64,000 nt of DNA from Escherichia phage slur07. The stretch lies in sequence record NC_028780.1; one strand, 5' to 3'. Position numbers and translations under genes: made by a program. Under the pieces are notes generated by a model. It had not been told where the DNA came from and did no database searches. It saw nothing but the letters and a program-made list of their open reading frames with translations. This document shows, piece by piece, positions 707 through 2,951 of this stretch. How positions within the stretch are numbered: the first letter of the stretch is position 1; each line of letters opens with the position of its first letter.

Positions 707-1312
707 ATGAAAATGCAAAGTGATTTCAATTCAATGTTTGAAGAGTTCCAAAGACAAGTTGATGTTCCAGACCAATTACTAAATGCTCTTAAACGCATGG
801 CAGAAGGACGTAATTACTATTGGAGCTCTTCATATGAAACTGATGAAAGTCTTTCTGGATTTTATAAAGGTAAAAAGTCTTTAATACGTCCTGGAATACT
901 CATTAAAAGTATTGAATCAATTCATTCATTGACATGTGATTTTGATGTTGAATTTACTGATTTCATTTCTCCTGAATGGACAGTTTGTTATTTAAATGAC
1001 GATTATGATTATCTTGGCGTTTATAGTTTAAGTGACGCATGGTTTAAACGTAATTTACAAAAGTCAAATTTGTTCTATATTGATACTACGGTAAAATTTC
1101 AGGGAAAGAAATATTTCTTTACTCTTATAGTTGATTCTGAAACAAAACATGAAAATAAACGTATTCTTAGTAAAAAGAATATCTTGACTATTGTTGATGA
1201 TCTTTTTGATAAATTCGTGGAAAATCCCAATTTTGAAAGCGATTTATTATTAGAAAAATTTGTTAAGGAATGTAGAGAATATGTTAAAGCCATCACTATA
1301 CCTTCCAAGTAA
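707..1312 (+). CDS. hypothetical protein, member of tandem paralogue set with conserved C-terminal tail
   Basis: 201-aa ORF; C-terminus KFVKECREY resembles tails of next three ORFs. Confidence 0.6.
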   Translation: MKMQSDFNSMFEEFQRQVDVPDQLLNALKRMAEGRNYYWSSSYETDESLSGFYKGKKSLIRPGILIKSIESIHSLTCDFDVEFTDFISPEWTVCYLNDDYDYLGVYSLSDAWFKRNLQKSNLFYIDTTVKFQGKKYFFTLIVDSETKHENKRILSKKNILTIVDDLFDKFVENPNFESDLLLEKFVKECREYVKAITIPSK

Positions 1313-1673
1313 ACCTGTGAAGTATGAATTAAAGCGCCAGCTAATTCCTACTGATGTATTAATAGGTCCTGTGACAGCTATATCATTTGTAATTCTATTG
1401 ATTGTTGGAATGGTTATAGACTTTATGACTGATATTGAATCTGGCGTAATATTTTTGTTAGTATTAATTCTTCCATTAGTAGTTCCATTTTTATTGGTAC
1501 CTGTAAATTGGGTAGGATATTGGTATCAAGGAAGGCATTATCGTAAACGTGTACGTGAATGGAAAGCTCAGTGTAAAAAGATCAAAAAGGAACACCAGCT
1601 TAAACTAAATATGTATGAATTTAATGAAATTATGAAATTTGTTAAGGAATCACGATGCAAAAGCCAAAACTAA
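1281..1673 (+). CDS. small membrane protein (paralogue set)
   Basis: ATG at 1281 after AAGGAA; hydrophobic segments; tail FVKESRCK; track ORF starts at TTG 1260. Confidence 0.55.
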   Translation: MLKPSLYLPSKPVKYELKRQLIPTDVLIGPVTAISFVILLIVGMVIDFMTDIESGVIFLLVLILPLVVPFLLVPVNWVGYWYQGRHYRKRVREWKAQCKKIKKEHQLKLNMYEFNEIMKFVKESRCKSQN

Positions 1674-2029
1674 ATAAAGTCAAATATTCTTTTTCTGAGT
1701 CATTTTTAATTTTTGCTGTGGCGTTGGCTGCAGCTCTTGCTGGTAGTCTTATTGGATTAACGATTGACTGTATTATTTTAAACATCCGCAGTAACGTCAG
1801 CGGTATAGTAGATATAATAGAAGTTTGGAGTGAACTTCATTATACTATAGCAATTTCATTATTTTCATTCTTTGGTATTATTTTATATTTTCATTATGAT
1901 AATTTTAAAATAAATTGGCAAAGAAAAAAGGATTACAAAATACAATTAAAAGAATATAATAACTACATATCTTATATTGAAAATGAATCAATGAAAGAGT
2001 TTGTGAGTGATTGCAGGAAAATCAAATGA
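1655..2029 (+). CDS. small membrane protein (paralogue set)
   Basis: 124-aa ORF, AAGGAA RBS, TM helices, tail EFVSDCRKIK. Confidence 0.6.
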   Translation: MQKPKLNKVKYSFSESFLIFAVALAAALAGSLIGLTIDCIILNIRSNVSGIVDIIEVWSELHYTIAISLFSFFGIILYFHYDNFKINWQRKKDYKIQLKEYNNYISYIENESMKEFVSDCRKIK

Positions 2030-2514
2030 TTTTAAAAACTCGCTGGTATGATTTAGATGATGGGGACGATGGCATTTCAGTCGATAGAGTTGACTGGAGC
2101 GGCTGTTCTGAAGATACAAAGAAACGATTAATTAGGGAGTTTAGAATGGGATATCAAGCAGTTAAGCCATCTACTGTAACAGATGATAAATTCGTGTGTA
2201 TTCAAAATGGTCGTGCTAAGTTAACGAACGCTGATTGGTTCACAGATAAGAAGGTTATTCTGTGGTATATTATTAGTTTTCCTGTGACATCATTTGTATT
2301 TTGCTTCTTTGGAGAAAGTCCAGTAGGCAGAACGGAAGATTGGATTCTTTTAATTATACTTGTTAATATTTTTACAGCAGCAGTACTATCAGGAATATGG
2401 TGCGTGTTCATTGAAATGCCATGGCGTTTACGCAGACAGCAAAAGATTTATGATGAAAAGAAATATGCTCAAAATTTAAATAGCTTTATCACTGAATGCA
2501 GGAAATTAAAATGA
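2026..2514 (+). CDS. membrane protein (paralogue set)
   Basis: ATG 2026 overlaps upstream stop (ATGA); TM segments; tail [10 protein letters not shown]. Confidence 0.6.
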   Translation: MILKTRWYDLDDGDDGISVDRVDWSGCSEDTKKRLIREFRMGYQAVKPSTVTDDKFVCIQNGRAKLTNADWFTDKKVILWYIISFPVTSFVFCFFGESPVGRTEDWILLIILVNIFTAAVLSGIWCVFIEMPWRLRRQQKIYDEKKYAQNLNSFITECRKLK

Positions 2515-2951
2515 AAACATTATCAGCTGGTATTATCTTCATGACAGAAGATAAAGATTTATTTATGGGTCGGGTTACTGGTTCTCGTAAGCCTGGAATG
2601 ATGGCACACCGCTGGGATATTCCAAAGGGGCGTGTAGAAAATTCTGATTTAAGCACATTAGATGCAGCACGAAGAGAATGCTCAGAAGAGACTGGTTTTA
2701 ACAATTATAATCCAGACCTTCTAGAAGACCTAGGTGTATTTAAATATTCTAGTAATAAAGACCTACAGTTGTTTTATTATACGATTCCAGTAGAGCATGA
2801 GATGTTCAGAAATTGCCATTGTGAGTCTTATTTTGAAAATAAAGATGGCGCTATGATTCCAGAGATGGATGCTTTTGCTCTTATTCCTCGTACTCAGTGG
2901 CAATATGTGATGGGTCCTTCACTTTACCAAATAATGAACAACCTCTTTTAA
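2511..2951 (+). CDS. nudE: Nudix hydrolase
   Basis: Nudix box (GRV...RECSEETGF); position immediately upstream of e as in T4; alternative start ATG 2496 gives 151 aa. Confidence 0.8.

Follow-up and report, generated by a model that had tools for sequence, protein, structure and literature searches.

Repeated gene junctions and a conserved C-terminal motif in the e.5–nudE block of Escherichia phage slur07

Four consecutive open reading frames (ORFs) upstream of the Nudix hydrolase gene nudE of Escherichia phage slur07 (NC_028780.1) end in related tails, and the question raised by this locus is whether they are copies of a single duplicating cassette, as a preliminary description of the sequence had proposed, and whether the tail is kept as a piece of protein or as a vehicle for the signals that start translation of the gene behind it. 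The window analysed here is the whole stretch of 64,000 nucleotides in which the locus lies. T4 is the best-studied large phage, and about half of its genes, including e.2–e.5, are without known function.

Sequence comparison identifies the four ORFs as e.5, e.4, e.3 and e.2, already known as hypothetical early genes of T4, which together form a T4-type (Tequatrovirus) block 5′ of nudE. Their products are 82–100% identical to those of many Tequatrovirus entries, and the gene order upstream of nudE and e is unchanged. The T4 ORFs are listed in UniProt as Y06P, Y06O, Y06N and Y06M, respectively; these are orthologues of the window genes, and the genes themselves do not differ. The genes of the locus and the hairpin that precedes them are as follows.

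72–665, + strand: gene e.6, 197 aa, helical; conserved neighbour 5′ of the array and its positional anchor (phrog_1203, E = 1e-87; annotated as e.6 in phage ime09).
671–686, no strand given: GC-rich hairpin with a GGGGCTTCGGCCCC core between e.6 and e.5, read from the sequence; a terminator scan places it on the − strand.
707–1312, + strand: gene e.5, soluble protein of 201 aa (Pfam Phage_T4_Y06P family); C-terminal helix with FVKECR at nucleotides 1259–1276.
1281–1673, + strand: gene e.4, 130 aa; predicted transmembrane (TM) helices at about residues 28–46 and 55–73 and a long basic cytoplasmic helix; FVKESR at nucleotides 1638–1655.
1655–2029, + strand: gene e.3, 124 aa; two predicted TM helices and a cytoplasmic helix; FVSDCRKIK end, with the motif at nucleotides 2000–2017.
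2026–2514, + strand: gene e.2, 162 aa; N-terminal domain of about 75 aa (the DDGDxGI...VDWxGC region), two predicted TM helices and a short basic stretch; FITECRKLK end, with the motif at nucleotides 2485–2502.
2511–2951, + strand: nudE (e.1), Nudix hydrolase, which closes the overlapping run (Pfam NUDIX, E = 4e-13; annotated as nudE in ime09).

The anchor gene e.6 is widespread, with tblastn matches in 1098 phage records across the Straboviridae. Each ORF of the array matches a family of its own: e.5 matches phrog_2607 over its full length (E = 8.7e-108; orthologues tagged PF26876), e.4 matches phrog_2604 over residues 1–130 of 130 (E = 2.7e-70; all close homologues tagged PF26873, Phage_T4_Y06O), e.3 matches phrog_2330 over its full length (E = 4.6e-61; 45 homologues with 69–100% identity) and e.2 matches phrog_2203 over its full length (E = 1.3e-77; homologues tagged PF26896, Phage_T4_Y06M, with distant members coming from a full HMMER scan). 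Pfam and PHROGs treat the four as unrelated families of unknown function, and a link between them is unrecorded. Local searches against Pfam, NCBIfam, PADLOC and PDB sequences gave zero matches, and the literature, searched by gene or UniProt name, yielded nothing on e.2–e.5. The database names 'sulfurtransferase' and 'host specificity protein' were set aside, as HMM support for them was absent.

The tails read EKFVKECREYVKAITIPSK, MKFVKESRCKSQN, KEFVSDCRKIK (e.3) and FITECRKLK (e.2) at the protein ends, and F-[VI]-x-[ED]-[CS]-R is common to the C-terminal regions of all four proteins; in e.5 the motif lies 11 residues ahead of the stop and not at the extreme C-terminus. That four consecutive ORFs carry related tails, as first noticed, goes far beyond chance. 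The pattern F[VI]x[ED][CSI]R has seven matches in the six-frame translation of the window (one of them across a stop codon), four of which are these tails, against 0.64 expected from mononucleotide shuffles, and within the last 22 residues the relaxed pattern is found in four of the 156 ORFs of at least 60 aa, which are exactly e.5, e.4, e.3 and e.2. The strict form F[IV]xxC[RK] has three matches among 414 ORFs of an essentially whole genome, made up of the window and the rest of ime09, namely the tails of e.5, e.3 and e.2; the remaining plausible genes of these roughly 166 kb, many of which overlap at their junctions, lack it at their C-termini. One further gene in these 166 kb, of 217 aa, fits the relaxed form.

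Beyond this genome, 50 motif-bearing tails were counted in the corresponding loci of 12 Straboviridae genera, with 0–6 per locus, a count which derives from the relaxed pattern and probably includes a few chance matches. When the e.5-like proteins of 11 phages were aligned, F185, C189 and R190 were the sole invariant columns, and diverse e.2 relatives all end in FIK[EG]CR[KN]. In e.4-type proteins S, I, V or M stands in place of the cysteine, which is therefore not universally required. The consensus of all four tails, hydrophobic-x-x-F-[IV]-x-x-C-[RK], has the character of an amphipathic helix, and the helical hydrophobic moment of the motif core is 0.34–0.79.

The nucleotides that encode the tails also carry the ribosome-binding site (RBS) and start of the next gene, in agreement with the preliminary description. 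The starts at 1281, 1655, 2026 and 2511 lie within the upstream ORF or form an ATGA overlap with it, the overlaps being 32 nt (e.5/e.4), 19 nt (e.4/e.3), 4 nt (e.3/e.2) and 4 nt (e.2/nudE), and AAGGAA or AGGAAA is present 5–10 nt 5′ of each ATG, inside the upstream ORF. The repeats at these junctions are of two kinds.

1256–1271, + strand: junction repeat 1a, AAATTTGTTAAGGAAT, encoding K-F-V-K-E of the e.5 tail; holds AAGGAA, 10 nt 5′ of the ATG of e.4 (1281).
1635–1650, + strand: junction repeat 1b, AAATTTGTTAAGGAAT, encoding K-F-V-K-E of the e.4 tail; AAGGAA at 1644–1649 is the Shine–Dalgarno sequence, 5 nt 5′ of the e.3 ATG (1655).
2000–2029, + strand: junction repeat 2a, comprising the e.3 tail, the Shine–Dalgarno sequence AGGAAA (2015–2020) and the ATGA stop/start with e.2; TGCAGGAAA crossover core at 2012–2020.
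2485–2514, + strand: junction repeat 2b, comprising the e.2 tail, the Shine–Dalgarno sequence AGGAAA (2500–2505) and the ATGA overlap with nudE; 80% identical to 2000–2029.

The copies of AAATTTGTTAAGGAAT at 1256 and 1635 are identical (chance expectation 0.41 with two mismatches allowed), and TGCAGGAAA.T.AAATGA occurs at 2012 and 2497 (chance expectation 0.14 with two mismatches allowed). The e.5/e.4 and e.4/e.3 junctions also resemble each other past the start codon (ATG.xAAAGCCAxxACTAxA, giving M-x-K-P-x-L). From the layout of this run of overlaps, e.5, e.4, e.3, e.2 and nudE may be translationally coupled.

With respect to kinship, the proposal of a tandem array of paralogues was upheld for one pair of genes only. 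Single-sequence BLASTP and Smith–Waterman comparisons gave weak matches (E = 0.003–0.006), the significance of which was lost with TM-preserving shuffles or on removal of the tails, and hhalign with Tequatrovirus-only families (Neff 1.2–1.6, probabilities below 10%) was too shallow to inform. Comparison of the orthologue sets of e.4 and e.3 gave an hhalign probability of 92.2% (E = 6e-7, 46 columns) against P = 0.14 for the control with a reversed profile, and a weaker signal remained with the tails trimmed (P = 4e-4 versus 0.15 for the reversed control). An iterative HMM search at E ≤ 1e-3 was rejected because it drifted, recruiting reversed decoys and bridging the families trivially through a natural e.4::e.2 chimera; it was repeated without the chimera at a threshold of 1e-4 with decoys. 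The transitive HMM search joins e.4 and e.3 at E ≤ 1e-4 with zero reversed decoys recruited. These profile comparisons show e.4 and e.3 to be true, old and diverged paralogues, the only pair with homology along their length.

The position of e.2 is more tentative. Its C-terminal layout of two TM helices, a basic stretch and the tail is that of e.4 and e.3, with an extra N-terminal domain ahead, and the e.3 and e.2 profiles align with a probability of 94% (E = 1.4e-7) over 36 columns, tail included. Without its last 12 residues, however, e.2 gives P = 0.026, which is no better than the reversed control (0.004), so that e.2 is no more than a tentative member of the e.4/e.3 family, and the match between the e.4 and e.2 profiles is confined to the tail. 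We tentatively place e.2 in the e.4/e.3 membrane-protein group, with detectable similarity mainly in the last 36 or so residues, that is, the tail and the juxtamembrane stretch. Only 15–16 tail columns of e.5 align with the others (Smith–Waterman z-scores ≤ 0.3), and from its sequence e.5 is a separate soluble family which has about 15 C-terminal residues in common with e.4, e.3 and e.2. Two further candidates were rejected: the window ORF at +13295 (153 aa, two TM segments) scored only E ~4e-4 to 6e-4 as a family member, in the same range as the decoys, and a match of a 2100-aa protein (P0198) to the e.2 N-terminal domain was taken as spurious, the protein being a Flg_new repeat surface protein.

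The idea of a cassette that duplicates through its junctions can be set against natural variation, for which the following two sites are needed.

1368–1376, + strand: CCTGTGACA microhomology in e.4 TM1, where the e.4::e.2 chimera found in nature has its left-hand breakpoint (comparison with phage UFV05).
2281–2289, + strand: CCTGTGACA microhomology in e.2 TM1, where that chimera has its right-hand breakpoint.

Copy number does vary among T4-like phages: e.2 is found in 446 records, e.3 in 497 and e.4 in 502, and tail-bearing membrane genes number from 0 to about 4 per genus. Phages of the T2 type are without e.2, with the crossover within the shared TGCAGGAAA junction core, and in phage UFV05 e.4 and e.2 are fused (e.4::e.2), the crossover lying within CCTGTGACA, which both genes contain. 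On the sequences of these two natural variants, the repeated junctions are sites of crossover, and their short identical cores may enable recombination to remove genes in frame and to exchange alleles; in the Tequatrovirus comparison, alleles have been reassorted between e.4 and e.3. A recent duplication was nowhere seen in the array, and all of the documented events are losses or fusions, with no gains. The earlier proposal is supported in part. The gene lineages of the array are, as their distribution indicates, old: e.5, e.4 and e.3 occur in Mosigvirus and Gaprivervirus, and e.2 occurs in Dhakavirus.

One ancestral cassette multiplied by junction recombination, from which e.5 and the N-terminus of e.2 would have diverged beyond recognition, is an unlikely origin for the whole array. 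Such an origin would suit the four consecutive genes with shared tails, the likeness of two junctions beyond the start codon, the variant breakpoints in repeats and the variable number of membrane genes. However, e.5 has neither a TM segment nor any similarity beyond the tail, the e.5-like proteins form an orthologous series of their own that is always directly 3′ of e.6, e.4 and e.2 have nothing in common past the tail, and deletions and fusions are observed but duplications are not. Moreover, the tails are more alike between orthologues from different genera than between paralogues in the same genome, which indicates that the junctions are not actively homogenised.

A second explanation, which we consider similarly improbable, regards the tail as a passive recombination scar or linker, harmless, copied between genes and promoting cassette exchange in the manner of PeSLs. 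The e.5 and e.4 tails are identical at 16 of 16 nucleotides in Tequatrovirus and at only about 11 of 16 in Mosigvirus, variable and reassorted gene bodies lie between conserved junctions, deletion breakpoints fall inside the junction core and PeSL-mediated shuffling provides a precedent, PeSLs being intergenic promoter-plus-terminator units (PMC2839356; Comeau et al. 2014, PMC4122927). As with PeSLs, short boundary repeats in a hyperplastic region coincide here with the breakpoints of insertion, deletion and exchange. Unlike PeSLs, the e.5–nudE repeats are coding (protein tail plus RBS) and conserved at the amino-acid level, their crossover cores are only 9 nt long and promoter and terminator features are absent from the junctions: no terminator-like site was found on the + strand at 700–2950, and promoter-like matches in the region are not enriched (22 versus 16.3 ± 4.2 expected). 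A further point against a passive scar is that the amino-acid motif is kept, with silent changes, where the flanking protein is unalignable; a neutral scar would have decayed over such divergence. Another parallel lies in the microhomology-mediated deletions of T4 between short direct repeats, known from the classical rII deletion studies, since both the e.2 loss and the e.4::e.2 fusion have 9-nt identity at both ends. In contrast to the rII-type deletions, the repeats in e.4, e.3 and e.2 lie at equivalent positions of related reading frames, so that recombinants remain in frame and retain the tail and the downstream translation signals.

The TM scan found two hydrophobic segments each in e.4, e.3 and e.2, in agreement with the three small membrane proteins of the preliminary description, and zero in e.5. 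In e.4 and e.3, basic residues at the N-terminus and after TM2, together with acidic loops, make both ends of the protein most likely cytoplasmic. The AlphaFold2 model of e.4 (pLDDT 76) contains a helix at residues 30–49 and a continuous helix at 54–129, and in this model the second TM helix extends as a cytoplasmic helix of about 50 residues. The significant Foldseek matches of the e.4 model in BFVD were an e.4 orthologue and one 119-aa protein (26% identity) only; a protein from Dhakavirus phage Bp7, similar in size to e.3, came at rank 5 with E = 1.0. A single-sequence AlphaFold2 model of e.5 was unusable (pLDDT 42). Our best guess for the motif, on a purely inferential basis, is a helix for docking or oligomerisation in the cytoplasm, which could let e.5-type proteins and the variable small membrane proteins bind each other or a common partner. 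Other conceivable roles, each no more than an idea, would be those of a gp21 protease site, a clamp-binding peptide or a site of Arg/Cys ADP-ribosylation with a link to NudE.

MinD and FtsA possess C-terminal amphipathic helices that bind the membrane in plane. A helix of this type could tether e.5-like proteins to the inner membrane, which we think improbable, and in the TM proteins the motif would then rest on the membrane surface and not bind a protein partner, an arrangement to which we likewise give little credence. The C-terminal placement of the motif, its hydrophobic stripe at −3, 0, +1 and +4 with R or K after it, and the fact that every carrier is cytoplasmic or has a predicted cytoplasmic C-terminus would be in keeping with membrane binding, but in many tails the polar face is acidic or has no net charge (as in EKFVKECRE), the mean hydrophobicity is low and the e.4 model puts the motif at the far end of its long helix, away from the membrane.

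Whether the tail is kept as protein was judged from the codons. Those of the motif vary synonymously (AGA, AGG, CGA or CGT for R, TGT or TGC for C and TTT or TTC for F), and the Shine–Dalgarno register differs from gene to gene, lying over K-E of the motif in e.5 and e.4 and over R-K in e.3 and e.2, where F-[IV]-x-x-C is upstream of the Shine–Dalgarno sequence and unneeded for it. In the e.5-like genes of phages P479 and MY742 the motif, written in different codons, is kept 13–15 codons ahead of the stop. In MY742 the following gene has its RBS 3′ of the motif, and in P479 the motif codons contain no Shine–Dalgarno-like sequence, yet an e.4 start follows close behind (a 125-aa e.4 ORF from 3684). 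These comparisons indicate that selection on the protein maintains the motif throughout the Straboviridae and that in Tequatrovirus its codons have additionally been recruited to encode the RBS of the next gene. Across nine genomes of Tequatrovirus, hardly any variation is seen at the e.5/e.4 and e.4/e.3 junctions (diversity 0.013–0.03, compared with 0.09–0.15 for the TM-coding bodies), so that nucleic-acid constraints, namely dual coding and the RBS, act there too. That the tail is nothing but a by-product of encoding the next RBS and start inside the upstream ORF, meaningless as protein, which the preliminary description had named as the outcome that would undo it, can be rejected as highly improbable, since, for all that each tail in the window overlaps the Shine–Dalgarno sequence and start of the following cistron and two junctions are invariant in nucleotides, the residues stay constant through silent changes and a shifting register, persist in P479 and MY742 and, in the strict form, are absent from the other C-termini of plausible genes in about 166 kb of genome.

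We therefore favour, with a probability of roughly 55%, the reading in which e.5–nudE is an overlapping block with coupled translation and recombinogenic junction cores, in which e.4 and e.3 are paralogues and in which the tail is selected as protein, as a cytoplasmic helix-packing or docking element. A further extension, which is possible but on balance doubtful, is that φ-x-x-F-[IV]-x-x-C-[RK] is a portable docking peptide through which a varying assortment of early proteins, unrelated in other respects, uses one common hub. Its users would be the soluble e.5-like proteins, the two-TM proteins of the e.4, e.3 and e.2 kinds and further small soluble proteins of the e.6-to-e hyperplastic region in the Straboviridae, and the candidate hub would be either a protein of the host or e.6, which is always adjacent. 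The T4 proteins gp43, gp33 and gp55 have sliding-clamp-binding C-termini, which are docking peptides on unrelated proteins, and the array resembles them in having a short conserved C-terminal hydrophobic motif on otherwise non-homologous proteins of one compartment. The motif of e.5–e.2 differs in sequence from theirs and in e.5 is not at the extreme C-terminus; the likeness may serve as a lead only.

In conclusion, three families that databases keep apart, those of e.4, e.3 and, with less certainty, e.2, can be joined into one membrane-protein group, and a fourth, unrelated family (e.5) has the same conserved, putatively cytoplasmic C-terminal helix. The dual-use junctions, which are both protein tail and RBS for the next gene, offer a natural example of how in-frame deletion and fusion can occur without breaking an operon, and the 9-residue motif, with three near-invariant positions, provides a handle for pull-downs, two-hybrid assays and point mutants. 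If the docking peptide is real, each gene gained, lost or fused in the array would amount to a change of effector on an adaptor that stays constant, and a peptide common to these proteins would give order to a considerable part of one hyperplastic region throughout the Straboviridae.

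The window is a genome segment of a Tequatrovirus (T4-type) phage. Of the 505 phage records that match positions 600-3000 (80-98% identity), Shigella phage KRT47 is the closest (98.1%). The annotated relative ime09 carries these ORFs as e.6, e.5, an unnamed ORF that corresponds to e.4, e.3, e.2, nudE and e.

Genes of the locus (window coordinates)
72-665, e.6
707-1312, e.5
1281-1673, e.4
1655-2029, e.3
2026-2514, e.2
2511-2951, nudE
2989-3477, T4 lysozyme gene e

The four genes e.5, e.4, e.3 and e.2 are already known hypothetical ORFs, with full-length matches to PHROGs 2607, 2604, 2330 and 2203, respectively (none with a known function), and with the Pfam tags Phage_T4_Y06P, Phage_T4_Y06O and Phage_T4_Y06M on homologues; literature searches found no publications on them. 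Since searches of NCBIfam, PADLOC, PDB sequences and a local copy of Pfam all gave no match, GenBank names such as 'sulfurtransferase' are unsupported. The preceding gene e.6 encodes a mostly helical protein of 197 aa, annotated as a 'host specificity protein' without HMM support. It is conserved over a range of 1098 records that extends from Tequatrovirus as far as Aeromonas and RB43-like phages, and an e.5-like gene always follows it. Three features have a regulatory look: an early-type promoter (GTTTACA...TATTAT) 5' of e.6 at 16-44, a hairpin between e.6 and e.5 at 671-686 that is rich in GC and has a UUCG loop, and two TATAAATA late-promoter boxes immediately 5' of gene e at 2955-2977. Between gene e and denV, a 98-aa ORF (3459-3755; RB69ORF127c-like according to the ime09 annotation) takes the position held in T4 by the internal-protein genes ipIII and ipII.

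The related tails that the preliminary description reported on the four ORFs are borne out as a C-terminal motif, F-[VI]-x-[ED]-[CS]-R (position 0 being F), with one correction: the motif of e.5 lies 11 residues before the stop codon. Translated in all six frames, the window contains F[VI]x[ED][CSI]R seven times, against 0.64 in shuffles; four of the seven are the tails and one spans a stop codon. Near the C-terminus, a relaxed pattern was found in only four of 156 window ORFs (e.5, e.4, e.3 and e.2), and the strict form F[IV]xxC[RK] occurs three times among 414 ORFs, the remainder of the genome being supplied from ime09, only in the tails of e.5, e.3 and e.2. The sole C-terminal relaxed match in a plausible gene beyond this block in the whole genome is gp59 of ime09 (217 aa, minus strand of L023, ORF start 28933), whose C-terminus, ...KSIFIETVKSCKY, is probably a coincidence. 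The nucleotides of the tails also hold the ribosome-binding site and start of the next gene, as had been noted: the downstream starts at 1281, 1655, 2026 and 2511 overlap the upstream ORF by 32, 19, 4 and 4 nt, and AAGGAA or AGGAAA lies 5-10 nt 5' of each, in an overlapping block of five cistrons. Both pairs of junction repeats (1256 versus 1635, 16/16 nt identity; 2000 versus 2485, 80% identity across 30 nt) belong to the highest-ranking direct repeats in this region and exceed chance. The repeat at the e.3/e.2 and e.2/nudE junctions has a weak collinear extension (2042-2060 versus 2526-2544, 79% over 19 nt, not significant alone) that enters the first codons of e.2 and nudE.

That the four genes form a single family of tandem paralogues, as first proposed, holds for only part of the array. 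Between single sequences, BLASTP gave E = 0.006 for e.4 and e.3, E = 0.003 for e.3 and e.2, and for e.5 only a tail match of 7-10 residues to the others; such similarity had no significance once shuffles preserved the TM segments or the tails were cut off. Profiles from Tequatrovirus alone were too shallow for use, and the locus was gathered, with the conserved e.6 as an anchor, from Mosigvirus, Gaprivervirus, Dhakavirus, Marfavirus, Jiaodavirus, Winklervirus, Tegunavirus, Karamvirus, an unclassified Enterobacter phage, Biquartavirus and Pseudotevenvirus, with diverse e.2 relatives added from a full HMMER scan of an e.2 profile against 1.84 billion representative proteins. With these cross-genus orthologue sets, hhalign aligned e.4 with e.3 at a probability of 92.2% (E = 6e-7), a value that a local run reproduced (reversed-profile control P = 0.14), and after removal of 12-16 C-terminal residues the match (P = 4e-4) remained well above the control (0.15-0.18). 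In an iterative HMM search (threshold 1e-4, reversed decoys included, a natural chimera left out), e.4 reached e.3 via single-copy proteins of Marfavirus and Winklervirus with zero decoys recruited. Because of the hhalign match, the tail-trimmed signal and this decoy-free walk, e.4 and e.3 are taken to be real and old paralogues. The match of e.3 to e.2 (94%, E = 1.4e-7) covers 36 columns from just past TM2 to the tail, and after tail trimming its forward score was no better than the reversed control; the alignment of e.4 with e.2 is confined to the tail. The e.2 protein has the e.4/e.3 architecture behind an extra N-terminal domain, and its TM part may or may not share their ancestry. The e.5-like proteins align with e.3 and e.2 over 15-16 tail columns and nothing more, which places e.5 outside the paralogues; they form a separate, fast-evolving orthologous series, always immediately after e.6. 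The iterated e.4/e.3 profile also weakly picked up an ORF at 13295-13756 (+), whose 153-aa product has a basic C-terminal region and two hydrophobic segments; with an E value of about 4e-4 to 6e-4, in the range of the reversed decoys, it was not accepted into the family.

T4-like genomes differ in how many tail-bearing membrane genes the locus holds: none in the examined Aeromonas and GAP161 loci, one right after e.5 in Dhakavirus, Marfavirus and Winklervirus (some with more copies near nudE), two in Mosigvirus, Gaprivervirus and Tegunavirus, three in Tequatrovirus and Jiaodavirus, and at least four in Karamvirus. Among Tequatrovirus records at >=60% identity, e.2 was found in 446, e.3 in 497 and e.4 in 502, so that about 10% of the records are without e.2. 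In most non-Tequatrovirus genera the e.3-like gene is directly followed by another tandem array, unrelated to the first, whose 2-4 paralogues are small soluble proteins that all end W-[VL]-S-S-S-x-x-C (or ...SSC); this array is not present between e.3 and e.2 of the window.

Second array in the fetched phage loci (locus coordinates)
L009, 2010-2804
L010, 4398-5450
L011, 4202-4797
L012, 6022-7061
L013, 6067-6644
L015, 6332-6891
L016, 6059-6554
L019, 5803-6329

The suggestion that the block is a cassette recombining at its repeated junctions fits a gene loss in T2, but no duplication in progress was seen in the loci compared. In T2, nudE directly follows e.3, the e.3/e.2 junction changing to the e.2/nudE junction within a common TGCAGGAAA, and since e.2 is present and adjoins nudE in Dhakavirus, its absence in T2 is a secondary loss. 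In UFV05 and four similar contigs, e.3 is deleted and a 106-aa fusion joins the e.4 N-terminus to the e.2 C-terminus, with the crossover within CCTGTGACA, common to the TM1-coding regions of e.4 and e.2. Junction-mediated gene loss and gene fusion are taken as shown. One e.4 allele is common to loci L005 and L006 (96.7% identity), whereas the L005 e.3 allele matches L007 (96.7%); such reassortment of adjacent genes means that recombination between gene bodies is frequent, and the conserved junctions are its obvious substrates. In a T4 clone (OL964735, L003 2919-3406), e.2 is split into ORFs of 102 and 63 aa, parting the N-terminal domain from TM plus tail; similar 102-aa clusters are P0193 and P0194. 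Two metagenome-assembly proteins, P0144 (31 aa of the e.4 N-terminus plus an HTH_11-type protein) and P0206 (an unrelated 60-aa N-terminus plus the last 22 residues of e.2, tail included), are further chimeras, produced either by real recombination or by faulty assembly. The junctions from e.5 to nudE show neither promoter nor terminator features and are therefore not PeSL cassettes, which combine the two (PMC2839356, PMC4122927).

Rival readings weighed for the tails are a neutral recombination scar, a membrane-binding helix and, following the preliminary description, a by-product of encoding a ribosome-binding site. The last is ruled out, as the residues are kept while codons (AGA, AGG, CGA and CGT for R; TGT and TGC for C; TTT and TTC for F; GTT, GTG and GTA for V) and Shine-Dalgarno register vary. 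The Shine-Dalgarno sequence is encoded by K-E (+2, +3) in e.5 and e.4 and by R-K (+5, +6) in e.3 and e.2, and the motif thus has no fixed register to the start codon. P479 and MY742 have e.5-like genes in which 13-15 codons separate the motif from the stop; the next ribosome-binding site of MY742 is downstream of the motif, and in P479 the motif codons contain no Shine-Dalgarno-like sequence, with the e.4 start still close behind. The only invariant columns among e.5-like proteins of 11 phages are F, C and R of the motif, and the diverse e.2 relatives all end FIK[EG]CR[KN]. The fetched loci hold 50 motif-bearing tails (0-6 ORFs per genome), a few of them probably chance matches; further carriers are small soluble proteins and, in Karamvirus and Winklervirus, extra membrane proteins adjoining nudE. 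The consensus has L/I at -3, an acidic residue or N at -2 and -1, F at 0, I/V at +1, C at +4 (S, I, V or M in e.4-type proteins) and R/K at +5, and the spacing of -3, 0, +1 and +4 corresponds to a single hydrophobic helix face. At the Tequatrovirus e.5/e.4 and e.4/e.3 junctions, near-invariant as DNA (diversity 0.013-0.03 versus 0.09-0.15 in TM-coding bodies), dual coding adds a nucleic-acid constraint.

As first described, three of the proteins are membrane proteins: e.4, e.3 and e.2 have two hydrophobic segments each and e.5 has none. In the AlphaFold2 model of e.4 (16-sequence alignment, pLDDT 76), TM1 spans 30-49 and one unbroken helix spans 54-129, so that TM2 is predicted to continue as a cytoplasmic helix of about 50 residues with the motif at its distal end. 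The e.5 model was unusable, and Foldseek returned nothing informative apart from orthologues. Basic residues are concentrated in the N-terminus and past TM2, and the inter-TM loops are acidic; by the positive-inside rule this fits cytoplasmic N- and C-termini, and the tails of e.4, e.3 and e.2 would then share a compartment with soluble e.5.

For the hyperplastic regions of T4, tandem paralogues, overlapping cistrons and microhomology deletions are nothing unusual. The e.4-e.3 link, probably also with e.2, the motif common to e.5 and other small Straboviridae proteins of the region, and its conservation at the protein level seem to have no record in the literature and databases that were searched. 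The comparisons show e.4/e.3 paralogy and a C-terminal helix motif, conserved as protein, that a soluble family has in common with one or two families of membrane proteins. At the cytoplasmic end of its carriers, the motif may form a surface for helix packing or docking, and would join e.5-type proteins and variable small inner-membrane proteins, mutually or via a common partner, for which the always adjacent e.6 is a candidate. As the motif ends R/K-K and often includes K-E, its codons AGG AAA/AAG GAA could readily have been recruited as Shine-Dalgarno sequences after the genes became tightly packed. These findings represent a modest yet real advance, with the tail motif as an easy experimental handle.
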